This document shows positions 318-14,949 of a stretch of DNA of 47,058 bases, one piece after another (positions within the stretch are counted from its first letter, which is position 1; every line of letters starts with the position of its first letter). This DNA comes from a virus. Taxonomy: Duplodnaviria; Caudoviricetes. The notes below the pieces were generated by a model, which saw only the letters and a list, made by a program, of their open reading frames with translations, was not told where the DNA came from and ran no database searches. The DNA lies in IMG/VR virus record IMGVR_UViG_3300005805_000138, positions 1 to 47,058 of that record, one strand, 5' to 3'. The translations under genes and the position numbers were made by a program.

Positions 318-1169
318 ATGCCTACCAATCTTACCGGCAACACAGTATCTAGCACTTACGATCAACTGTTGCATGTTGATGGTGGCCCGACTGCTACGGA
401 AAAAACCGTTTACGGCGGAACGGGCGTTGCAACTGCGCTGAAGGTAAGCACCGGCGCGGTATCTGTCGATAACATTAAGTTAGACGGTAATACGGTTTCG
501 TCTACTAATACGAATGGCAATATCGTTCTTTCTCCAAATGGAACCGGAACGGTAAGTTTCTCAAAGGCCGCAATTACTGGTGGCACTATTACTGGCGTTG
601 GTCTCTCGGGACTCAGCGCGGATCTTCCGATCGCCGATGGCGGCACTGGTGCATCAACTGCATCTGCTGCAAGAACTAATTTGGGAATTGGCACAAACGG
701 CACATTCGATTCTGCGTATGGACAATTCTACTCTACGCAAGATCAGACTCCTGCTGCCAACACTCCGACAGCCCTGACATTAAACAACTCCTCTGCGTTC
801 AACACGGGAGTATCTGTTGTATCAAATTCGCGTGTAACGTACACAGCAGCTGGCGTTTATTGGATTACCGTTAGCGTACAGTTTAATAACACTGACGCTG
901 CTGACCATGATGCCTACATTTGGTTTCGTAAAAACGGTACGGATATTGCGGATAGCAACTCGGTGACTACCGTCCCCAAAACTGGCGACGGCGGTAGAGC
1001 TCTTTTAGAAGTTTCGATTATGGAATCGTTGACCGCTGGTCAATATATCGAGGCTATTGTCATGGTCGAGAACGCCGGTGTTGACGTTGAGCACACCGCT
1101 GCTTCCGCTGGCCCTCCGGTTGTACCGGGTATTCCGTCAGTGATCTTCGTAACCAAGAGGCTTGGGTAA
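318..1169 (+). CDS. Fibre protein with C-terminal C1q/BclA-like (TNF-fold) head domain
   Basis: ATG at 318 follows GGAG. N-terminus MPTNLTGNTVSSTYDQLLHVDG, a Gly/Thr-rich shaft (DLPIADGGTGAS...ARTNLG), and a C-terminal AYGQFY...AGVYWITVSVQF pattern typical of trimeric jelly-roll heads. Confidence 0.65.
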   Translation: MPTNLTGNTVSSTYDQLLHVDGGPTATEKTVYGGTGVATALKVSTGAVSVDNIKLDGNTVSSTNTNGNIVLSPNGTGTVSFSKAAITGGTITGVGLSGLSADLPIADGGTGASTASAARTNLGIGTNGTFDSAYGQFYSTQDQTPAANTPTALTLNNSSAFNTGVSVVSNSRVTYTAAGVYWITVSVQFNNTDAADHDAYIWFRKNGTDIADSNSVTTVPKTGDGGRALLEVSIMESLTAGQYIEAIVMVENAGVDVEHTAASAGPPVVPGIPSVIFVTKRLG

Positions 1170-2690: not shown

Positions 2691-2948
2691 ATGCCCCGAT
2701 ATCTTCGCCATCGCCTTGACGGTTGGATCTACGAATGGGACGCAATCTTAGCGGCTAATCCTGTATGCGAGGAGGTCAGCGAGGAGGAGGCGTACCCTGA
2801 GCGTTTTGTGAAACCGGAAGTTGTTGAGAAGGCCAAGCGGGGTCGCAAGCGTAAAGGAACCCTTGACTTATCAACAGATGACATTCCGGAAGAGCCTACG
2901 TATACTCCGCCTGAGTTGGCGGCTGACGCATCGAGGCGCTTACCGTAA
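2691..2948 (+). CDS. Hypothetical protein
   Basis: Fits the operon tightly, with TAATG coupling to the next gene. Confidence 0.65.
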   Translation: MPRYLRHRLDGWIYEWDAILAANPVCEEVSEEEAYPERFVKPEVVEKAKRGRKRKGTLDLSTDDIPEEPTYTPPELAADASRRLP

Positions 2949-3592
2949 TGACTCCACAGGACGTAATCACGGAAGTTCGTAGGCTGATTCAAGATGAGTC
3001 GGCCCCGTTGCGTTATAGCGACACCGTGCTGCTTGGGTTCGTCAACCAGACTCTCAAGCGGATGGCTATCCTGCGTCCTGACCTTTTCTCGCTTATTACT
3101 AATATCCCGACTACTGCTAATTCGGTAGTGCAGAATTGTCCGTCTGATTCAGTAAGACTGGTAGAGATATTTCAAGTTGTTGGTGGTAATGCTATCACAG
3201 AAGTTTCGCGGGATACTCTAGACCAGTCTACTCCGAGTTGGGTAGCCGAGGCTGCTGGTACACCGGTGAACTACGTCCGGCATGTCAGAAACCCTAATCG
3301 GTTTTTCCTATACCCGGCTCCGACCACCGGCACGCAACTGGTTGCAGAATACATTCAGTCGCCTCCTGCCTATACACTTGGGCAGACGGTTGCACTGCTA
3401 CCGGACTCGTACCTGTCGACCGTTGTGGATGGCACGGTTTATCTGGCTGAGTCGGTCGATAACGAGCATGTCAACTCTGGACGTGCGAAATTGTTTTTCG
3501 ATTCGTTTACGCAGAGTCTCGGGGTGGGGCTACAGTCCCGCGCTATTACGGATACTGAAGAAGGCGGACTTGATCCGAGGCAGGTGGTCTAA
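2948..3592 (+). CDS. Head-tail adaptor-like protein (DUF6682-like)
   Basis: VITEVRRLIQD...RYSD..LLGFVNQ...LRPD N-terminus and FFLYPAP motif typical of podophage adaptors; position before the tail genes. Confidence 0.65.
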   Translation: MTPQDVITEVRRLIQDESAPLRYSDTVLLGFVNQTLKRMAILRPDLFSLITNIPTTANSVVQNCPSDSVRLVEIFQVVGGNAITEVSRDTLDQSTPSWVAEAAGTPVNYVRHVRNPNRFFLYPAPTTGTQLVAEYIQSPPAYTLGQTVALLPDSYLSTVVDGTVYLAESVDNEHVNSGRAKLFFDSFTQSLGVGLQSRAITDTEEGGLDPRQVV

Positions 3593-4365
3593 TGGCCGAC
3601 CGTACATACGCATCGCTAGTGCCGAAGATCAGCCCGAGTGTTCCGGGTTGTCCGCAACCCACCATGATTCAGTACATTCGGGATGCGGCTATTCGCGCGT
3701 GCGAGCGCAGTCTGGCTTGGCGTTGGGTGCAGCCCACATATAACTTGACGCCGGGCGTGTATGAATACTTGTATAATAAGCCTACTAATACTGACGTGCA
3801 TGTTGTCTTCGACGCTATCGTAAATGATGCGCCGTTGCAGAAACTGACGTTGGAACAGGCGTTATACCAGTTTCCATACTGGGCTGACCTCTACAGCGGG
3901 GTTGATCCAAACGTTGTGTGGTTGAGTTCGCAGTCGAATTCGTTCAATTCTAACCAATACAACAACTCTCAGTACAACGGGAATGGGAGCAGTGTACTTC
4001 CAGATTCAGCCGTTGCTGAGGCTACTGATCCTCGAGCAATCTGTCAGTTGACACCGGATAAGTACATTATTTTACCGTTGCCGGATCAAGCCAAGGCGTA
4101 CACGATGCGTATGTTCTACGCATTAAAGCCGAAGCGTAATTCAACTGGTATGGATGAGATCATCTTCGATGAACTCGAGGATGTGATTACGCACAACGCG
4201 TTGCAGCATCTGCTTGTGCTGCCTAACACTAATTGGTCTGATCGTGAGCTAGCTGCGTATCACGCAAAGCAGTTTATCTTTCAACTTTCCGAACGCCGTG
4301 CCCGAGCTAACCTCGGTAATATGCGCGGTGTAATGACCGCGCAAATGCAGCGGTTTGGAGTTTGA
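3592..4365 (+). CDS. Second adaptor/tail-ring protein
   Basis: VPGCP....QYIRDAAIRACERSLAW motif and LPLPD...LKP; coupled to the previous adaptor. Confidence 0.6.
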   Translation: MADRTYASLVPKISPSVPGCPQPTMIQYIRDAAIRACERSLAWRWVQPTYNLTPGVYEYLYNKPTNTDVHVVFDAIVNDAPLQKLTLEQALYQFPYWADLYSGVDPNVVWLSSQSNSFNSNQYNNSQYNGNGSSVLPDSAVAEATDPRAICQLTPDKYIILPLPDQAKAYTMRMFYALKPKRNSTGMDEIIFDELEDVITHNALQHLLVLPNTNWSDRELAAYHAKQFIFQLSERRARANLGNMRGVMTAQMQRFGV

Positions 4366-4367
4366 TT

Positions 4368-6590
4368 ATGAGTGTTCTTCTTAAGAATAACGCGTTTGCT
4401 ACTACAGTTATAGCTGCTAGTTCTAGCGATACAGCTTTGGTACTAAAAGCCGGAACTGGCGCTAACTTCCCGACGATAACGGGAGGAGACTATTTCTATT
4501 TAACCGTAGCCAATGGTAGTAGTGCGCCTGAGATTGTTAAGTGTACTGCTAAGAGCGGAGACATTCTGACTGTTGTCCGTGCTCAAGAGGGAACGGCGGC
4601 TCAAGCGATCCCCGCTGGTAGTATTGTAGAACTGCGCGTAACTGCGCAGTCGGTTATCGACGCAATTAACGATCGGGTGCCTGCAGAAAATTTCTTAAAT
4701 GTTAAGGCATACGGCGCGGTAGGCGATGGAGTGACTGACGACACAGCTGCTATTCAAGCGGCTATTAACGCGGGCGCTACGCTTGGACGTACTGTTTACT
4801 TCCCCGCTGGCACCTACCGTATCGTCCCGGCGACGTTGAAGGACTGGGAGGGTACTCCACTTGGCGAAGGCCCTATGACGGTGGCTTTCGTCATTCCATC
4901 AAATATGTGTCTCTACGGAGACGTCGGTGCAGTTCTCAAGCTTGCCGATAATGTCTCGACGCTGGCTGCTCCGAAGCGGGTGGCGATGTTCTTCTCGAAT
5001 GTGCCTGTCTCGAATATCCGTTTCTACGGATTGACTATGGACATGAACGGGTTGAACAACCGCATTGCTCCAACCGCGCCTGTGTTTACTTTGTATCGGT
5101 ATAACCAAGCGCACATCCACATTACCGGAACGATCGGCGGTGTGGCTGCTCGAGCAGATGATGTGCATATTGATTCCTGTAAGTTCCTCAATACGGCAGG
5201 AAAGTCTTGCATTGTTACCCAGCAAACAAATACGGTCGGACTGACTCTCTCTAAAAACTGGGTTATTAAGAACTGCTTGTTCAAAAACAACGGTATCGAC
5301 ACCGATGACCACAGCAGTATCTACGCTTGGGCTGACAATGTTATTTGCGAAAATAACATTTTTACCGCAGACACGATGTTTCCAAACGGAATTTCTGGCA
5401 ACAGCGGAACTCTCGTTGCTTATGAGGTACACGGTGCTAATCAGCGCTTTACCAACAACCTTGTAAGCAATTACTGGCAAGGCATGTGGGTTGCGTCAAA
5501 TACCACGTCACAAGCCGCCAACATCATTATTTCCAATAACACGTTCTCTCCGGTCAAGTGGTATGCGATTGACTTCTTCCGCAGCAGCGCAGTTGAAACA
5601 GAGATTAACCGTGTGTTGATTGAAGGTAATACGGTTCTGATAGACGACACCACAACGACCGGCACGTTGCCGACATTCAAGGCTGCTTTCCAGATCGCAT
5701 CGTTCTATCGCATCCAGAACGTGCAGATCAGCAACAACCTTTGCTCAAAGTCTGGCGCAACGATTCCGTCTGTTGGAATCTTGATCACGCCGCAAGGCAA
5801 TGCCAGCAACGAGCATCGCAACATCACAATCCGCGATAACGCAATCACAGGCTTTGGTTCCGGTGTTGCAACGTTTATCAACTCGACGAACGGCATGGGT
5901 CCGCTGGAGATTAGCAACAACTACATCCGTAACTGCTCGGATGCGCCGGGGTATACGACCCCGCAAGGCGTATCTATTGGCCTCAGTGGCGTAGCTCCGT
6001 TGGCAACTGCCTACGAAGCGCTGTTCATTTCCAACAACACGTTTATCGACGACCGTTTGTCTAAGCAAATGGACTTCGGTATTCGCATTGACCAAGTAAC
6101 GGTGACTAACCTCAACGTCCAGCGCCAGAAGTATTTGGGCATGGTCACGGGCAACTATGCCGAAGCCTCGACGACTGTGACCAACCGCTTTGGGTACTAC
6201 GAGTACATCACGTTTACCCCGGTTTGGAAGGCGGGCGGCGTAGCGATCACGCTCGGTAACGGCGCGCGCAATGCGTCTTACACGGTTGATGAAAAGCAAG
6301 TCACTATCAATGCCACGCTAACGGTCGGGTCTACCACATCGTTTGGTGCGGGCATCATTACGCTGGACTTGCCGTTTACGACCAATGCCAATCCGATGGG
6401 TTACATTGGCAACTGGCGCATCTTTGACGACAACACTTCGACCTACTACTTTGGCGGCGCCGTTTCGGTTAACAACGACACGGGTGTTGGCTTGCAGTTA
6501 AATAACGGCAGCAACGTAACCGACACGTCGCCAATTACGTTTGCCGCAGGCGATACAATCTTCTTGCAACTGACGTACACCCGAGCCTAA
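4368..6590 (+). CDS. Tailspike 1: N-terminal anchor domain, right-handed beta-helix (pectate lyase-like) and C-terminal beta-sandwich
   Basis: NVKAYGAVGDGVTDDTAAIQAAI...VYFPAGTY motif followed by Asn-ladder repeats (ISNN, IEGN, IRDN). Confidence 0.85.
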   Translation: MSVLLKNNAFATTVIAASSSDTALVLKAGTGANFPTITGGDYFYLTVANGSSAPEIVKCTAKSGDILTVVRAQEGTAAQAIPAGSIVELRVTAQSVIDAINDRVPAENFLNVKAYGAVGDGVTDDTAAIQAAINAGATLGRTVYFPAGTYRIVPATLKDWEGTPLGEGPMTVAFVIPSNMCLYGDVGAVLKLADNVSTLAAPKRVAMFFSNVPVSNIRFYGLTMDMNGLNNRIAPTAPVFTLYRYNQAHIHITGTIGGVAARADDVHIDSCKFLNTAGKSCIVTQQTNTVGLTLSKNWVIKNCLFKNNGIDTDDHSSIYAWADNVICENNIFTADTMFPNGISGNSGTLVAYEVHGANQRFTNNLVSNYWQGMWVASNTTSQAANIIISNNTFSPVKWYAIDFFRSSAVETEINRVLIEGNTVLIDDTTTTGTLPTFKAAFQIASFYRIQNVQISNNLCSKSGATIPSVGILITPQGNASNEHRNITIRDNAITGFGSGVATFINSTNGMGPLEISNNYIRNCSDAPGYTTPQGVSIGLSGVAPLATAYEALFISNNTFIDDRLSKQMDFGIRIDQVTVTNLNVQRQKYLGMVTGNYAEASTTVTNRFGYYEYITFTPVWKAGGVAITLGNGARNASYTVDEKQVTINATLTVGSTTSFGAGIITLDLPFTTNANPMGYIGNWRIFDDNTSTYYFGGAVSVNNDTGVGLQLNNGSNVTDTSPITFAAGDTIFLQLTYTRA

Positions 6591-6601
6591 TAGGAAAACA
6601 T

Positions 6602-8275
6602 ATGGGCGTAGTATTAAAAAATAATGCCGTAGGTTATCTGCAGTCAGCAATTACTGCTTCGGATACTGGCATCGTATTGACAGTTGGCACTGGGGCTAAC
6701 TTCCCTAGTCTTGCCGCTGGTGAATATTTTTACGCGACGATATCTATAGGTAGTGTTCCTGTTGAGATTGTTAAAGTAACTGCACGTTCGGGCGATACCC
6801 TTACGGTTGTTCGCGGGCAAGAAGGAACATCTGCCTCAAACTTTTCTGCTGGTAGTGCAGTTGAGCTTCGGGTTACTGCGCAGTCAATTGTTGATTCCGT
6901 TGCCCAACTTCCAAAAGACGCTTCTACAGTTTCATATGTACCTAGCGGAACTGGAGCAGTTACTACTAACGTACAGGCAAAACTTCGACAGTTAGTAAGT
7001 GTAAAAGACTTTGGCGCAGTAGGTAACGGCGTTGCTAATGACACGGTGGCAATTCAAGCGGCGATTGATGCTGTTTACAATGCGGGCGGAGGAACCTTGT
7101 TCTTTCCGTCAGGTACTTACTTGGTGACGAGCGTAGTTCGCAACTGGGCAAATCCGATTACCGTCAACTTGCAGGGTGAAGGCAAACGATCGACGGTTAT
7201 CAAAAAGTTTGACGCTTCGACAACGCCATTATTTGATTTATCCGGCATTGCGTCCATGTTGGAGCCGTACAGCGAAATCTCCGAGATGACGCTTAATGCA
7301 AACAACGTCGGAGCTAACGGTATTCGCGCAACCAACTTTGGCCGCTGGGTGTTGCGTAATGTTTTCATCACCGGATGTAATCGTGGTCTCTATTGCCGTG
7401 GCGGTCTAGTGTTTGATGTGTATGACTGTACATTTCAAGCAAACCAATATGGTTATTATTGCGAGAAATCAGCCAATAACGTGTTTAGCAATCTGGTGTC
7501 TTTCTACGGCGGCCAGTTCAGCGGTAACACAACTTGGGGCTTATATATTACGCAAGCCTCCGGTGTGCATATCGTCGGCACCGACATCAGCTTCAACGGC
7601 ACCTCTGGCGACGTCAACACGGGCGGCATCTACTACGATGCTACGATGGACGACGAGATTGGCTATGCCATCGCGTCTATCAAGAACGCTTGGTTTGAGG
7701 GCAACTTTGGCAACGGTATCAAAACTGGCGCTGTTGGCGGCTTGCACTTCTCGATGCGCGACACGACGTTGGCCGGTAACTTTAATCCGGTAACGATTGG
7801 CGCGATTGCCATGAGCGAGATTATCAACTGCTTTGCCGGTTCGACTACAGACACGATTGTGGTCGGCGCGGGTCGCAGCATTATTGAAAACTGCATCTTT
7901 TACGCGCTTAACGATAACAGTACCTACTACCACCACCTCAACGTGGTCGGGAACGCCTACAACCATATCAATCAGACCAATGCTCGGCGTGATGTGATCT
8001 GCGGAACAGAGCGGTTCGTACAAGGCTCTGCCGCTGACTTGACTGCTGGCACACCAGAGGACTTTGTAAACTTCCTGTTCGGTACTGGCCAGCAGCAGTT
8101 CTGGTGCCAGAACGTTAAGAACTTGAGCCTTGGCCCTGCGGCAATCGGTTTCTATGGCACCTCGCCACAGACCAAGCAGACAATTACGGGGTCACGCGGT
8201 GGTAACGCTGCGCTTGCTTCTTTGCTTACTGGATTGGCGGCGCTTGGTCTAATTACCGATTCAACGACTGCATAA
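6602..8275 (+). CDS. Tailspike 2: same anchor domain plus beta-helix depolymerase-like body
   Basis: N-terminal ~100 aa are paralogous to tailspike 1; GTGAVTTNVQAKLRQLVSVKDFGAVGNG neck motif; C-terminal GSRGGNAALASLL..L..LGLI module. Confidence 0.85.
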   Translation: MGVVLKNNAVGYLQSAITASDTGIVLTVGTGANFPSLAAGEYFYATISIGSVPVEIVKVTARSGDTLTVVRGQEGTSASNFSAGSAVELRVTAQSIVDSVAQLPKDASTVSYVPSGTGAVTTNVQAKLRQLVSVKDFGAVGNGVANDTVAIQAAIDAVYNAGGGTLFFPSGTYLVTSVVRNWANPITVNLQGEGKRSTVIKKFDASTTPLFDLSGIASMLEPYSEISEMTLNANNVGANGIRATNFGRWVLRNVFITGCNRGLYCRGGLVFDVYDCTFQANQYGYYCEKSANNVFSNLVSFYGGQFSGNTTWGLYITQASGVHIVGTDISFNGTSGDVNTGGIYYDATMDDEIGYAIASIKNAWFEGNFGNGIKTGAVGGLHFSMRDTTLAGNFNPVTIGAIAMSEIINCFAGSTTDTIVVGAGRSIIENCIFYALNDNSTYYHHLNVVGNAYNHINQTNARRDVICGTERFVQGSAADLTAGTPEDFVNFLFGTGQQQFWCQNVKNLSLGPAAIGFYGTSPQTKQTITGSRGGNAALASLLTGLAALGLITDSTTA

Positions 8276-8295
8276 AGAATGTGAGGTTATAAATT

Positions 8296-8649
8296 ATGGC
8301 TACTGTGTCTCCTGAATTTTCACCGGTCTACGCTCAAGGGCAGACCATCATGCGAACTGTCTGGGCAGATTTAGCGACTGGAGATACGGTCGTTCAATTA
8401 GGCATCCCCGGACAAGCTGCCGTAGCTGGCGCTGTACAGTTTACTGGCACGTTTGGTGGTGCTACTGTTAAACTGCAAGTATCGAATGACAACTCTACGT
8501 ACTTCGATATGAAAGACCTACTTGGAAATGTTATCACCGCAACGGCAGCCGGGTATTTTGAGTTTACTACGGCTGGTGTATACCTCCGTCCCGCTATTAG
8601 CGGTGGAACTGGAGATGCGGTTGATGTAACTATAAGTTTGCGCGGATAG
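8296..8649 (+). CDS. Small virion beta-sandwich protein
   Basis: GAGG RBS; QFTGTFGGATVKLQVSND motif seen in small phage structural proteins. Confidence 0.6.
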   Translation: MATVSPEFSPVYAQGQTIMRTVWADLATGDTVVQLGIPGQAAVAGAVQFTGTFGGATVKLQVSNDNSTYFDMKDLLGNVITATAAGYFEFTTAGVYLRPAISGGTGDAVDVTISLRG

Positions 8650-8653
8650 CTAA

Positions 8654-8785
8654 ATGCGTAATTTAGTTGTATTTTTGCGACGGCGGCTACAGGCAGGTAC
8701 TCCCGATAGTCGTGCAGAAAATATCGAGTTAGAGAATGGATTTAACATTTTATTAGAGAACGGTTCGTTTCTCTTACTGGAGTAA
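8654..8785 (+). CDS. 43-aa micropeptide ending in three 8-residue xxLE repeats (absent from ORF track)
   Basis: Hand-translated: MRNLVVFLRRRLQAGTPDSRAENIELENGFNILLENGSFLLLE; fills the gap exactly, and its 3' end provides the GGAG RBS for the next gene. Confidence 0.7.
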   Translation: MRNLVVFLRRRLQAGTPDSRAENIELENGFNILLENGSFLLLE

Positions 8786-8791
8786 TTCCAC

Positions 8792-10141
8792 ATGGCTGAC
8801 CAAAAGATTTCGCAACTTTCTTCCGGCGCACCGGCACAGGCTGGCGATGAATATGTCGTAGCCCGCTCTGGCGCTAACTACAAACTTACCGGCTCAAACG
8901 TCGCTGCGTTAGTTGCAGGAACGGCAAACACGTTCTCGGCAACGCAGACTTTCAGCAACCCGGTTGAATTCGCAGACGGCTCTGCGTCGGCTCCTGCCGT
9001 CACGAACACGGGCGACACCAATACCGGCGTGTACTTCCCTGCTGCCGATGAAATGGCCGTTACGACGGGCGGCACGGTCGCTGCTGCGTTCAATAGCAAC
9101 GGCATCTTCTTCCGTAACCGCATCATCAACGGCGATATGCGGATCGCGCAGCGCGGTACTGCTGCGGTGACGACATCAAATGCGTTCCCAGTTGACCGAT
9201 TTAGAATTCCAAACGGTACGGATGGTGCATTTTCCGCTCAACAAGATTCATCTGCGCCGACTGGATTTATAAATTCGTTAAAATATACAGTTACTACTGC
9301 GGATACTAATTTAACAACTGTCCAAACGACTGGAATCGTTCATCCAATTGAAGGAACAAATATAGCAGATTTTGGATGGGGAACAGCCAATGCTCGAACA
9401 GTAACTTTATCATTTTGGGTGCGTTCTAGTTTAACTGGTACGTTTAGCGGTTCACTCCGCAATGGCAATGTTACAAGATCATATCCATTTACCTATTCAA
9501 TTTCCGTTGCTGACACGTGGGAATATAAAACAGTAATAATTACTGGCGACACTAGCGGCACTTGGACTACAGATACAAGTGCTGGGCTATACATATTTTT
9601 TAGTTGTGGTGGAGGACCAGATACAACAGGCACCGCAGGATCATGGGCAAGCGCAAACTACAGCACCGCAACAGGCACTGTCTCCGTGATTGGTACTCTT
9701 AATGCAACTTTTTATGTAACCGGAGTCCAACTAGAAACCGGCTCCGTCGCCACTCCGTTTGAGCGTAGACCGTATGGCACGGAGTTGATGCTGTGTCAGC
9801 GGTATTATTATCGCGCATTTCCCGGAGCCGTTACTAAACTTCTTGGAACAACTGGATATGTATCCAGCGCAACTAGTTACCGTGCGCTTGGAAATTTTCC
9901 TGTTCCGATGCGCGTTGCTCCTTCAGCGTTAGAAACAACGGGAACTGCAAATCAGTATCAAATTGTGACTGGTGTGTCTGCATTTACGCCAACCGCGCTT
10001 GCTCATGCTGGTTTGACTACTGACATGTATTGGATGGTTGACGTCACTAGTAGTGGGATGACGTCCGCAGATGCAGGTCATTTTAGAACCGACTCAACTA
10101 ACGGAGTCACCGCTTACCTCGGATGGAGTGCAGAACTGTGA
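8792..10141 (+). CDS. Tail fibre / receptor-binding protein
   Basis: MADQKISQL N-terminus; GSASAPA...DTNTG shaft repeat; FRNRIINGDMRIAQRG and GVQLETGSVATPFE.R....EL..CQRYY blocks characteristic of aquatic phage fibres. Confidence 0.75.
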   Translation: MADQKISQLSSGAPAQAGDEYVVARSGANYKLTGSNVAALVAGTANTFSATQTFSNPVEFADGSASAPAVTNTGDTNTGVYFPAADEMAVTTGGTVAAAFNSNGIFFRNRIINGDMRIAQRGTAAVTTSNAFPVDRFRIPNGTDGAFSAQQDSSAPTGFINSLKYTVTTADTNLTTVQTTGIVHPIEGTNIADFGWGTANARTVTLSFWVRSSLTGTFSGSLRNGNVTRSYPFTYSISVADTWEYKTVIITGDTSGTWTTDTSAGLYIFFSCGGGPDTTGTAGSWASANYSTATGTVSVIGTLNATFYVTGVQLETGSVATPFERRPYGTELMLCQRYYYRAFPGAVTKLLGTTGYVSSATSYRALGNFPVPMRVAPSALETTGTANQYQIVTGVSAFTPTALAHAGLTTDMYWMVDVTSSGMTSADAGHFRTDSTNGVTAYLGWSAEL

Positions 10142-10305
10142 CGTACAAAATGCTGCCGAAGAAAGAAGGCGAGCCACAAATCTACGCTCGCATCGACGAC
10201 GATGGCCTGTGCCGCCTGACCTGCACAGACGAATATCCGCCATTCAAGGAGTGGCTTGCAGAAGGCAACGAGCCGCTGCCTGCTGACGAACCGCCGAGCG
10301 CCTGA
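10138..10305 (+). CDS. Small fibre-associated protein (assembly chaperone-like)
   Basis: GTGA overlap with the fibre stop; C-terminal EWLAEGNEPLPAD motif commonly follows this fibre type. Confidence 0.6.
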   Translation: MTYKMLPKKEGEPQIYARIDDDGLCRLTCTDEYPPFKEWLAEGNEPLPADEPPSA

Positions 10306-10307
10306 CA

Positions 10308-10589
10308 ATGGCTAACTGGAAAGTGGAGGGGCTGTACGTCGCGCAGACCTCCGATCACGCTGATGTCGTGACGGATGTTGCGTGGGCTTGCTACGGCAAC
10401 AACACCATGCGCGGCAAACTGGCTCTCGGCGAACCCGGCAAGCCGTTTGTGTCGTATGCCGATCTGACGGAAGATGCCGTCCTGTCATGGGTCTGGGCGC
10501 GTGTAGACAAGGCGTTCGTTGAGAATGACGTAGACGCTGCTGCTTCCGCTGCATCACCTGTGACGCTCAAGCCGCTGCCTTGGAGTTAA
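10308..10589 (+). CDS. Fibre-associated small protein
   Basis: VVTDVAW...FVSYADLTEDAVLSWV...PLPW motif. Confidence 0.6.
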   Translation: MANWKVEGLYVAQTSDHADVVTDVAWACYGNNTMRGKLALGEPGKPFVSYADLTEDAVLSWVWARVDKAFVENDVDAAASAASPVTLKPLPWS

Positions 10590-10592
10590 ACC

Positions 10593-10901
10593 GTGAACGA
10601 TCCAGAGATCCTCGCCGTACGCTTGGAAGCACTTCACTCTGACATGAGTGAAATGAAGACAGTCTTAAACAAACTGTCGGATGCGCTTACTAAGTTGGCG
10701 TTAATTGAACAAACGCAGAGCCAAACCGCTGGATCTCTTGAACGTGCATTTAAGATGCTAGAGAAAATTGAATCACGCGTGACTGCACTGGAGTTGGCCC
10801 AACCAAAGAATGACTTCGCGTCCACATGGGTCGATCGTATCATCACCGGCACGGTTGGTTTTGCAGCGGCAATTATTGCTGCTAAGTTTGGCTTGATGTA
10901 A
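10593..10901 (+). CDS. Coiled-coil protein with C-terminal TM helix (holin/XhlA-like)
   Basis: GGAG RBS; heptad-rich body; hydrophobic IITGTVGFAAAIIAAKFGLM tail. Confidence 0.55.
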   Translation: MNDPEILAVRLEALHSDMSEMKTVLNKLSDALTKLALIEQTQSQTAGSLERAFKMLEKIESRVTALELAQPKNDFASTWVDRIITGTVGFAAAIIAAKFGLM

Positions 10902-13430
10902 GTGGCTGCACTGAAGATAACTAGTTTCCTTGGTATCGCACCGAAGATTGCCTCGGAGTTGCTGCCGGACACTGCTGCACAAGTTGCACTGAATACTAAA
11001 CTGTATTCGGGAGATCTAATCCCGTATCCGCAACCTGTTGCAGCCGGGGACACCGGACAAAACACAACTGTAAAAACTCTTTATGCCCTTCGTAACCCAA
11101 GTACTAGCGCAGTGGAGTGGCTGTCTTGGACTACTGATGTAAACATTGCGGTTGCCACTTCGAACGAGAATAACAACCAGCGGTTTTACTACACCGGTGA
11201 TGGAGTTCCTAAGGTCAGCGACTACACGTTGGCTACTAACGGATCACTTCCGTATCCTGTGGGATACTACGATCTTGGACTTCCGGTTCCGACTACTAAG
11301 CCAACTGTTTCGACTACTCCGTTTACTACCAAGACCTCCGCCAGTTTTGCGCGTGACGCGTCTGGTATCGCTACGATTGTCACTGGAACTCCGCATGGAT
11401 TACGCACCGGAACTATCGTAACTGTCTCCGGGTTTACTTTTATTTCGGGGACATACAATCAGCCCGGTACTACGACAATCACGGTCAACATCCCGAGCCA
11501 CGGTCTTCCAAACGGAGCTGTGGTTTCGCTGGACTTCACGACCGGTACTGCAGTCGACGGCACGTTTACGATTAGTAACGTAACTACAAATACGTTTGAC
11601 GTAACTGCTAGCGCATCGCTTACTACCTCTGGAGCAGTGCGTCTTAGCATTGGTAGCTTCAACGTTACCAACATTGAGATCAGCGTGGTAAATACCACCA
11701 CGTTTACGTATTCAAGTCCGGGTTTCCAGATTGCTACCTACGCTAGCACTGAAGGTCGGATTGACCTCGGCGGCTTTGATCAAGTTCGCACATATGCGTA
11801 CACTTGGTTCACCCCATGGGAAGAGGAGTCGATTGCTTCTGACCCATCGGATGAACTACTGCTGAAGGAAGGTCAAGTTGTTACGGTTACAAATCTTCCA
11901 AGCGCCAAACCTACGGGAAACAACTTTGTCCGTGGCATCCGCTTGTACAGAACCGTACCGTCGACAACTGGTACTCGTTATTTTCGACTTAACACTCTCT
12001 GGTTCCCACTTGCTCTCACTCGAGTAGAGCGGACTAGCAACGTCTCGCGTGTAACTACCGAGTTCCCACATAACCTGAGCATCGACGACCGCTTTAAGAT
12101 AAGTGGTTGCGGTGTGGCTTCGTTCGACATCACAGGCGGAATCGTCACCGATGTTATCGACAATTACACATTTGAATACGCTCAGGTCGCGGCTAATGAA
12201 CCGGATACTACTGTCGCCGTGGGTACGCTATTCTATGACGTATCGCAAACTCCCGGCACTAGCACTGCTCAATACTGGGGTGACGGCGGCGTTTATACTT
12301 TTACTGACAACTTTAACGTAGCCACTCTGCTTGACGTTCTTGAGTCGGATGACTACGACGCGCCGCCTTCGAATCTGAAAGGCTTGGTCGCCATGCAGAA
12401 CAACGTGCTGGCTGGGTTTGTAGCCAACGAGATTTACTTCTCTGAGCCAAACTTACCGCACGCATGGCCAGTTCCGTACAAGATCACTATTGAGCCGAAC
12501 GTTGTTGGGCTTGCACCTATTGGCGGGTCGCTTTTGGTTCTTACCGAATCGTTCCCGTACATCATCCAAGGATCTGATCCGGCTGCAGGATTCAGCACGC
12601 AACGTATTGACCTGCAATATCCGTGTCTGAATATAAAAAGTATCGTTACTTTAAGTGGTGGTGTTGTCTGGTCAACCTACGATGGTCTGGCTTACTACTC
12701 ACCGTTTGCAGGTGCACAACTTGTAACCAAGTTCAACTACAACAACGATACGTGGACAACTGAGTTAGATCCATCAACGATTGTCGCAACCTTCTATAGC
12801 GATATGTATTTTGCCTCGCATTCGAACGGAGCATTTACGTTTGAACGCGACGAAAGGCTTGGTGGTTTGTTTGTTGATCTTGGAGAAACTTCTCAATACT
12901 TGTTGTTGGAAAACAACGACAATCTTCTAAGTGAGTTAGATGGAAGTTTTCTGTTGGAGGATGCAAGCCTCGTCGGATTCACATCCACTTGGTATGACGC
13001 AATAACCAATAAGCTTTACTACACCGCCGGGTCTACTGGAAACGTTTACCAGTGGGATGACTTGACCCAAGCGCCGCTTACCATGCTGTGGAAGTCCAAG
13101 ACGTTTAAGACTAAGGATATGATCAATCTTGGAGCGGCACGCGTTATTGCTGACTACTCTCCAGTTGCCAGCACGGTTCTGGAAACTAACTGGGACGATG
13201 TAGATACGAACTGGGAGGCTACGTCTGGTACTTACGGTATTACCGATCAGGTAATTTTCCGCTTGTATGTAGACAAACAGCTTAAGTTTACAAAACAACT
13301 GGCTAATAGCGGCACGTTCCGTATGCCCAGCGGCTACCGGTCAGATACCTTTGAGTTTGAAGTGGAAGGCAATATCCGCATCCGTGAAGTCCACATGGCC
13401 GAAACTCCGATTGGGCTTAAGGAAGCCTGA
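10902..13430 (+). CDS. Tail nozzle / tail tubular protein with inserted small beta-barrel domains
   Basis: N-terminal FLGIAPK..ELLP...AQ.A.N; beta-propeller-like core (IYFSEP..PHAWP); C-terminal WKSK.F...FRMPSGYR; three PHGL/SHGL/PHNL-type barrel repeats inserted. Confidence 0.65.
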   Translation: MAALKITSFLGIAPKIASELLPDTAAQVALNTKLYSGDLIPYPQPVAAGDTGQNTTVKTLYALRNPSTSAVEWLSWTTDVNIAVATSNENNNQRFYYTGDGVPKVSDYTLATNGSLPYPVGYYDLGLPVPTTKPTVSTTPFTTKTSASFARDASGIATIVTGTPHGLRTGTIVTVSGFTFISGTYNQPGTTTITVNIPSHGLPNGAVVSLDFTTGTAVDGTFTISNVTTNTFDVTASASLTTSGAVRLSIGSFNVTNIEISVVNTTTFTYSSPGFQIATYASTEGRIDLGGFDQVRTYAYTWFTPWEEESIASDPSDELLLKEGQVVTVTNLPSAKPTGNNFVRGIRLYRTVPSTTGTRYFRLNTLWFPLALTRVERTSNVSRVTTEFPHNLSIDDRFKISGCGVASFDITGGIVTDVIDNYTFEYAQVAANEPDTTVAVGTLFYDVSQTPGTSTAQYWGDGGVYTFTDNFNVATLLDVLESDDYDAPPSNLKGLVAMQNNVLAGFVANEIYFSEPNLPHAWPVPYKITIEPNVVGLAPIGGSLLVLTESFPYIIQGSDPAAGFSTQRIDLQYPCLNIKSIVTLSGGVVWSTYDGLAYYSPFAGAQLVTKFNYNNDTWTTELDPSTIVATFYSDMYFASHSNGAFTFERDERLGGLFVDLGETSQYLLLENNDNLLSELDGSFLLEDASLVGFTSTWYDAITNKLYYTAGSTGNVYQWDDLTQAPLTMLWKSKTFKTKDMINLGAARVIADYSPVASTVLETNWDDVDTNWEATSGTYGITDQVIFRLYVDKQLKFTKQLANSGTFRMPSGYRSDTFEFEVEGNIRIREVHMAETPIGLKEA

Positions 13431-13791: not shown

Positions 13792-14949
13792 ATGGCTAAC
13801 GATATCAATACTACTTCACTTGACCTCCCCCCGGCGTTGGCCAGCATTCTCAATATGCAACTGCCTACAGTGCAGCAGCCCGCACAAGCCGCTCCGATGG
13901 TAGGACTTTCTTCAGCCGCTGGGATCGGGCCGCAACAGATTGGCGGGGGTATGCCGATGGGTATCCCTTCGTTTCAGGAAGGGGGGTATATAGGGGATAA
14001 CAGAATTCCGAACCCAGTCCGGTCTTTGAACGCGTTAGTTAATTTGCCGGGACAGTTAATGTCGTTGAAACGCGCTAGAGACGCTGGCCCGAAACCCAAC
14101 ATCCCGCTTAGTGAATCTGGCTATGGTAATGATCCGTTTAATATGGGCCCTGCTGGGTTCTATGCTGCCGGACGCCAAGAACAAGCCATGAATAAAGCAG
14201 GCGGTATGGCTCTAGGCAACCAATATCAGGGGTATCTGGATAACATGATCAACCCGCCTCGTGGCGGTGGTATCGCCCGTGACGAACGCTTGGGGGATCA
14301 GAGTTTGAGTATGGATATTCCGTCGTTCCAAGAGGGCGGCATGATTGGCGAGGGGGGTATGCCCGTTCCTCCGGGGGCTGTGCCGGGGATGCCGATGCCA
14401 ATGGCTGGTGTCAATCCTGCTATGGACTCTGAGACTCCGATGGATGCTCAGGCTATGCAGATGCAGATCAATCAGGTGGCCTCGCGCCACCCAGAGGCTA
14501 TGGCTGAGATCCGCAATGCTATCGTGGAAGAGATGCAGTCTGGAGATCTGACTCAGCAAGAGTTGAACATGATCGTTCAGCTTGCGCAGTTGGCTGCAAA
14601 CAATCCAGAAATGTATCCGTACGTGAAGCAGTTCGCCATGCAGCAGGGTATCGCTGCCGCTGGGGATTTACCGGAACAGTACGACCAAGGTCTGGTCATG
14701 GTGCTTCTGCTTGCGGCTCGGGCGGTTCAGCAGGACTTGGGTGGAGCCCCGGCAGGTGAGATGCCTGCAAACGCTGGCCCCGTAATCCCGTCCATGCAGA
14801 AGGGTGGTATGCTCCCGGCTAGCGGTAAAAGCGAACCTATCCTCATTGAGGCCCACACCGGCGAGTACGTTATCCCGAAACACGTCGTGGACATGAAGGG
14901 CAAAGAGTTCTTCGACTCGCTTGTAGAGAAGTACAAGGACAAGAAGTAA
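13792..14949 (+). CDS. Internal virion (ejection-type) protein
   Basis: Met/Gln/Pro/Gly-rich; three PS(F/M)Q(E/K)GG motifs; C-terminal GEYVIPKHVV...GKEFFDSL motif. Confidence 0.55.
   Translation: MANDINTTSLDLPPALASILNMQLPTVQQPAQAAPMVGLSSAAGIGPQQIGGGMPMGIPSFQEGGYIGDNRIPNPVRSLNALVNLPGQLMSLKRARDAGPKPNIPLSESGYGNDPFNMGPAGFYAAGRQEQAMNKAGGMALGNQYQGYLDNMINPPRGGGIARDERLGDQSLSMDIPSFQEGGMIGEGGMPVPPGAVPGMPMPMAGVNPAMDSETPMDAQAMQMQINQVASRHPEAMAEIRNAIVEEMQSGDLTQQELNMIVQLAQLAANNPEMYPYVKQFAMQQGIAAAGDLPEQYDQGLVMVLLLAARAVQQDLGGAPAGEMPANAGPVIPSMQKGGMLPASGKSEPILIEAHTGEYVIPKHVVDMKGKEFFDSLVEKYKDKK

Follow-up and report, generated by a model that had tools for sequence, protein, structure and literature searches.

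How phages add fibres or move them to new positions has usually been learned one cryo-electron microscopy structure at a time. The 47-kb linear virus record IMGVR_UViG_3300005805_000138 (all 47,058 nucleotides, hereafter the window) encodes, in its tail proteins, four short segments that each consist of three evenly spaced units: one FN/YN repeat, one W repeat, and two LLE repeats. An earlier note had read each of them as a pseudo-threefold plug for one class of trimeric fibre. Related arrangements have been described. In the type VI secretion system, loops 1 and 2 of TssG each place three hydrophobic residues of one chain into the N-terminal cavity of a TssK trimer, and mutating all three abolishes binding, according to the accessible part of the report (PMC6300606). 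The available portions of three further papers describe a single hub subunit whose loop or triangular platform binds all three fibre protomers, for Pam3 gp23 (PMC9942802), E217 gp45 (PMC10329688), and AlgoCIS Alg12 (bioRxiv 10.1101/2025.10.08.681156). At the head spike of the gene transfer agent RcGTA, an N-terminal repeat of Rcc01080 binds all subunits of the Rcc01079 jelly-roll pentamer at capsid vertices, as stated in the accessible text (PMC7296036).

We put at about 80% the probability that the four repeats in the window fall into three classes of portable peptide, all of them optional, that each class is specific to one fibre start, and that each repeat serves as a plug, with its three units bound to the three subunits at the start of a fibre trimer. 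They are likely plug-and-socket joints that set fibre position, because each class travels with its own fibre start: FN/YN with LKNNA, W with LTG (LTG/STY), and LLE with KISQL. The earlier interpretation is supported at the level of sequence, since the motifs are optional and each co-occurs with the fibre start named for it. Homology identifies the window as a GP4-like podophage tail module, with two tandem adaptors, a nozzle, and an LKNNA-type fibre that are all homologous to GP4 proteins. Adaptor II and fibre III are the names used for the GP4 proteins, and in GP4 the trimeric LKNNA-type fibre is reportedly attached to the nozzle. The features are as follows.

318..1169, + strand: fibre with an LTG/STY-type start, 283 amino acids; PHROG tail-fibre matches; predicted socket for the W repeat, from co-occurrence
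2948..3592, + strand: adaptor I, SU10_adaptor family, without a repeat (Pfam PF24175, E = 4.6e-24)
3592..4365, + strand: adaptor II, homologue of GP4 gp81 (12 chains in 8JOV), by alignment (E = 2.3e-13)
3943..3978, + strand: threefold FN/YN repeat in adaptor II, period 5; predicted plug for LKNNA trimers
4368..6590, + strand: tailspike 1, LKNNA start domain and pectate-lyase-like body
6602..8275, + strand: tailspike 2, LKNNA start domain resembling the start of GP4 fibre 8jov_1, by homology
8296..8649, + strand: 117-residue jelly-roll protein (predicted model), likely pentameric base for the linker
8654..8785, + strand: 43-residue linker peptide with a conserved N-terminal segment and a C-terminal threefold LLE repeat (8723-8782); homologues in the same gene order
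8792..10141, + strand: fibre with a KISQL-type start, 449 amino acids (phrog_4492 tail fibre, E = 9e-55); predicted socket for the LLE repeat
10902..13430, + strand: nozzle, homologue of GP4 8jov_A (6 chains; E = 1.1e-50)
12900..12959, + strand: threefold LLE insert in the nozzle (3 of 29 nozzles; present in contig G001); predicted second site for the KISQL fibre
13191..13235, + strand: threefold W repeat, period 7, in a swappable nozzle slot; predicted plug for LTG trimers

All four segments (3943-3978, 8723-8782, 12900-12959, and 13191-13235) translate as had been described, and the fibre starts are present at 318, at 4368 and 6602 (both LKNNA), and at 8792. The protein at 3592 that had been called the adaptor is indeed an adaptor, but it is the second of two, the homologue of GP4 gp81; adaptor I begins at 2948. 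The start of tailspike 2 matches that of 8jov_1, a protein with 18 chains, at E = 7e-16 as a single sequence and 1e-30 as a profile. Adaptor II had no match in a GenBank phage set, Pfam holds no named family for any of the three fibre starts, and a PDB sequence search returned no solved relative of the LTG start. Strict patterns written for the repeats match these four segments alone among the 8,183 residues of 18 plus-strand open reading frames in the tail region. In 2,000 shuffles within reading frames the mean number of matches was 0.011 for W, 0.019 for LLE (2 observed), and 0.08 for FN/YN, counts that are not usable as P values because the patterns were written after the motifs had been seen.

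The adaptor and nozzle segments had been said to read like loop insertions, and alignment of homologues bears this out. The FN/YN repeat lies within an insert of 34–40 residues in adaptor II that is present at 31 of 72 adaptor loci and absent from the other 41, and the nozzle LLE insert occurs in three of the 29 aligned nozzles that cover its site. Among 58 nozzles, the W site is occupied by the threefold W repeat in 35 and by an FN/YN-type repeat in 18, including those of GP4 and Bcep22 (three hydrophobic-N units); it is empty in three and unreadable in two. In these alignments the W site is a swappable slot, and the repeats in adaptor II and nozzle behave as optional insertions dispensable for the core fold. 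Every class and every carrier has three units, and the segments span 12–21 residues.

The pairing of each motif with one N-terminal domain was read from a three-by-three co-occurrence matrix. Three sets of loci were fetched separately, by fibre start alone, and loci of at least 6 kb were kept and dereplicated (KISQL, best 80 of 137 loci; LTG, 120 pattern loci of an estimated 700, 80 of them with flanks; LKNNA, 78 loci from bacterial genome contigs). In the KISQL set (n = 47), LLE was found on the same strand in 34 loci, W in one, and FN/YN in one, with none on the opposite strand. The LTG set (n = 55) gave W in 34, LLE in two, and FN/YN in one, again with opposite-strand counts of zero. For LKNNA (n = 62), same- and opposite-strand counts were 31 and 2 for FN/YN, 2 and 2 for W, and 1 and 0 for LLE. 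The strict FN/YN pattern was adopted because a looser form had a high background (16 same-strand and 13 opposite-strand matches in the LTG set). The matrix is diagonal, with every off-diagonal cell at two or below, and the three guessed pairings, LLE with KISQL, W with LTG/STY, and FN/YN with LKNNA, came out as guessed, each motif being specific to its named fibre start. No GP4-type nozzle occurs in the KISQL or LTG set, and the 38 LKNNA loci that lack one have FN/YN in 16 (same strand) and 1 (opposite strand). Across all the phages and loci covered, adaptors, nozzles, baseplate-region proteins, and free peptides carry such plugs, and the partner stays the same.

For W and LTG, a profile of the LTG start run over 50 records gave 23 full matches, and all 23 of these records have the W loop. 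Five W-positive contigs without a full match (G012, G015, G017, G018, and G020) are all cut before the place of the LTG gene, and the remaining 22 records have no W loop (the slot is cut off in one). Among relatives at least 90% complete (n = 19), the loop is present in 9 of 9 with an LTG gene and absent from 10 of 10 without one. In contig G029 the slot is empty and there is no LTG gene in the 9 kb upstream of adaptor I; its nozzle is nested among W-positive nozzles. Of 88 distinct LTG starts, 33 have a threefold W repeat no more than 150 nt upstream.

For FN/YN and LKNNA, 29 contigs were read whole. The pattern was matched in 22 of 24 LKNNA-positive contigs, the other two (G009 and G038) having degenerate forms, and four contigs (G005, G006, G014, and G019) have neither a tail-module FN/YN repeat nor an LKNNA gene. 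In Vibrio phage 252E42.2 and Skulduggery the nozzle slot is empty and the fetched regions hold no LKNNA gene. LKNNA fibres also occur in five named phages that are unrelated, and four of these (Chronis, YenM 29.18, ct2os315, and PhiXhv-12) have clear hydrophobic-N repeats; the myophages Chronis and YenM 29.18 have two such repeats in one baseplate-region protein. In 8JOV the GP4 LKNNA fibre has 18 chains versus six nozzle chains, an indirect structural anchor for the pairing. The adaptor insert alone fails as a predictor of LKNNA, as LKNNA genes without the insert occur in phages that bear the nozzle repeat.

Hydrophobic-N repeats were also seen at the beginning of GP4 and Bcep22 proteins (L326:2206-3183 and L329:6523-7263) and at N termini in many LKNNA prophage loci, which suggests further docking sites. 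LKNNA domains of about 108 amino acids are encoded alone beside full fibres at several loci (L025:10780, L029:3364, L016:3215, and others) and may be caps for spare plugs.

For LLE and KISQL, a threefold LLE repeat ends the reading frame directly upstream of 60 of 77 KISQL genes and lies 1.7 kb away in two more (not dereplicated). A profile of the repeat was less sensitive than the pattern. Both LLE and KISQL are present in G000, G001, G010, G011, G017, G031, and G032, with a degenerate form in G002. In G001, which has a KISQL gene and no linker, LLE is confined to the nozzle; the window has LLE in both linker and nozzle.

The gene for the 43-residue peptide stands in the middle of a cassette that recurs in other phages, in the order small protein, linker, and KISQL fibre. 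A protein of 94–117 amino acids, of one of three types, is encoded directly upstream of 39 of 40 distinct linkers, and the linker N terminus varies with the type. An RcGTA-like segment (I/L/V-A/S-I/L/V-GLG) starts 21 of 21 LLE linkers that follow a type ii small protein and none of 18 others; the RcGTA-like (I/L)xLGLG segment is absent from the linker of the window. The predicted model of the 117-residue protein is a jelly-roll (predicted local distance difference test score [pLDDT] of 91). Its best structure matches are YomS (Z 10.4, root-mean-square deviation [rmsd] 3.4, 101 aligned) and XepA (Z 9.9, rmsd 2.5, 98 aligned), followed by a next match at 8.0, and an ESM Atlas lead is a cluster that is 30% XepA. 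Both YomS and XepA are pentamers, according to the accessible part of their description (PMC6834076). Foldseek returned generic jelly-roll matches only. With hhalign, the family of the 117-residue protein scored 79% (E = 1.5e-5) against type i and 0.7% against type ii, which was not alignable. PDB sequence searches gave no match for the 117-residue or the type ii protein, and the type ii model, a poor one (pLDDT 61), had no Foldseek match at E ≤ 0.001. The RcGTA base is absent among the matches listed for the 117-residue model, and no homology to Rcc01079 was found. Judged from the model, the 117-residue protein probably serves the linker peptide as a pentameric base. The 43-residue peptide itself is likely a pentamer-to-trimer linker.

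At loci L104-L177, the linkers with the GLG segment, encoded upstream of the KISQL gene and after a type ii protein of 100 amino acids, are candidates for head-spike linkers from five-fold to three-fold symmetry. In G002 (L335:17757-18819) the cassette of small protein, linker, and fibre comes directly after a terminase gene; the linker has 136 amino acids and a degenerate LLE repeat, and collagen-like GPT repeats come after the KISQL-like fibre start. At L003:13321-14700 the linker peptide forms the N terminus of a 459-residue protein instead of ending after LLE. A related fibre start, MPGKRIS.L or MAAKRIPQL (L080:1049, L317:636, L211:7945, L239:4806, and L249:1271), could be either a divergent KISQL or a socket class of its own, the fourth.

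In the layout that we propose, the three units of each repeat would bind the three protomers at the start of one fibre trimer. FN/YN loops on 12 copies of adaptor II would serve as docks for the two LKNNA tailspikes, with at most 12 LKNNA trimers attached there. Each of the six nozzle subunits would offer a W loop to an LTG fibre and an LLE loop to a KISQL fibre, for 6 + 6 trimers, and the 43-residue peptide would anchor additional KISQL fibres on an oligomer of the 117-residue jelly-roll protein, possibly at capsid vertices. We infer the direct binding, three-fold geometry, copy numbers, and place of the jelly-roll protein, as well as the trimeric state of the LTG and KISQL fibres; both fibres have tail-fibre family matches, and a collagen-like body follows the KISQL-like start in G002. 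With less assurance, we lean towards a wider view in which a small orthogonal set of plugs and sockets is common to tailed phages. A hub insertion of 12–21 residues, or a five-to-three-fold linker of 40–60 residues, would then create a new fibre position, and the layout would be readable from the genomes of podophages, myophages, and prophages.

Several observations weigh against the plug reading. The cognate motif is missing within the fetched flanks in 13 of 47 KISQL, 21 of 55 LTG, and 31 of 62 LKNNA loci, and LLE is missing at 15 of the 77 KISQL loci. Fisher P values for the matrix are ≤1e-13 and are not adjusted for relatedness; the LLE pattern was broadened once the KISQL set had been viewed. 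Tree-aware tests within the family, with traits coded by hand and uninformative fragments omitted, gave only two, three, and three independent pairs and were consistent with the pairings but underpowered (P = 0.25–0.5); no pair ran in the opposite direction, and one LLE pair was uninformative in half of the pairings. Contig G012 has the FN/YN insert and no LKNNA gene in 25.8 kb (the contig starts inside adaptor I), and its LLE peptide is paired with a divergent head only (MAAKRIPQL). G021 has the related head MPGKRISEL, and no LLE was found there. In phage Mansfield an LKNNA-like fibre is accompanied by no more than a degenerate repeat. In part of the family, the nozzle FN/YN form has about 17 extra residues separating units 1 and 2. 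GP4 has two LKNNA genes, one of which alone is among the PDB matches listed.

The weak tree-corrected support for the pairing would also suit peptides that nucleate or cap trimers as assembly aids, or that are inherited as modules with the fibre gene, without fixing fibre position. In many cases an LLE or W repeat closes a small gene immediately upstream of the fibre gene, a position also taken by chaperone genes. However, the motifs are also found inside core tail proteins at distances of 4–13 kb from the gene of the partner, replace one another at a single nozzle site, and change carrier among adaptor, nozzle, and baseplate while the partner is kept. Linkage alone would not lead one to expect this, and we regard this account as unlikely. 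We consider it a little less likely still that the repeats bind fibres as ropes do, each unit adding a strand to a separate subunit or dimer, with no three-fold plug. The accessible part of PMC13730344 describes an A1002 nozzle-rope that docks 11 fibre dimers by beta-sheet augmentation and a GP4 rope with five dimers, and the LLE units resemble beta-strands with turns in their sequence, but the repeats have three units everywhere, in segments of a dozen to 21 residues, and GP4 has three chains of the LKNNA fibre for each nozzle chain. That the repeats are mere chance, or low-complexity loops without a partner, is very improbable: the motifs are short and their patterns were defined post hoc, but spacing conserved in dozens of homologues, near-zero opposite-strand counts, and the diagonal matrix largely refute it.

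Elsewhere in the window, small Lys/Arg-rich reading frames and an endonuclease VII gene (1417-1821) lie between the LTG fibre and adaptor I (1169-2689), and a 385-residue reading frame at 13792-14949 has three widely spaced copies of the segment IPSFQEGG/IPSMQKGG. Adaptor I genes are duplicated in some relatives (L085, L031, L017, and L316), which suggests tails lengthened by extra rings. A run listing placed the DNA sequencing runs that contain the window sequence mostly in freshwater or aquatic samples, and no RNA run was listed as containing it.

If the pairs bind as predicted, the sequences of uncultured phages could reveal where fibres attach and with which partners, a linker role could be assigned to many unannotated genes of 40–60 codons, and protein assembly would acquire three small orthogonal peptide-trimer pairs as parts. 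The principle of one loop docking a trimer is already known, and it is less new than the earlier note implied, because single loops that dock trimers have been published. What is new is the presence of three sequence-readable, portable, and apparently orthogonal plug classes in one podophage; a literature search that took in few subscription papers found no paper that describes three such classes, defined by sequence and combined with slot swapping and free linkers.

The nearest relatives are Ralstonia podophage GP4 (8JOV; Gervaisevirus) and the Bcep22-like phages, which have homologues of the same nozzle, adaptor II, and LKNNA start and a threefold hydrophobic-N repeat in the nozzle. Unlike in these phages, the nozzle slot of the window holds the W repeat, and FN/YN sits in the adaptor II insert. 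The window also has two more fibre classes with repeats of their own, whereas GP4 has no LTG match. The rope-and-dimer fibres of A1002 and GP4 are similar in that extended nozzle or rope segments dock fibre subunits, as described in the accessible part of that report (PMC13730344), but the segments of the window comprise three units of 5–8 residues in place of long ropes with many dimers. In the RcGTA head spike a short repeat of one chain binds all subunits of a jelly-roll oligomer, much as proposed for the linker of the window, and type ii linkers have a GLG segment like that of RcGTA; the spike differs in being five-fold, with the repeat fused to a single-chain fibre, and the linker of the window has a different N-terminal segment. 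The TssG loops, for which we claim no homology, are defined by three residues, both bind one type of trimer, and belong to a fixed part of a contractile baseplate, as far as the accessible text describes them. Pam3, E217, and AlgoCIS have one socket type per particle, and the available portions of those papers do not describe repeat classes, hub swapping, or a free linker. The repeats of the window would resemble these single-loop systems in that one chain docks a trimer, and in alignments the adaptor and nozzle loops that carry them are optional or swappable.

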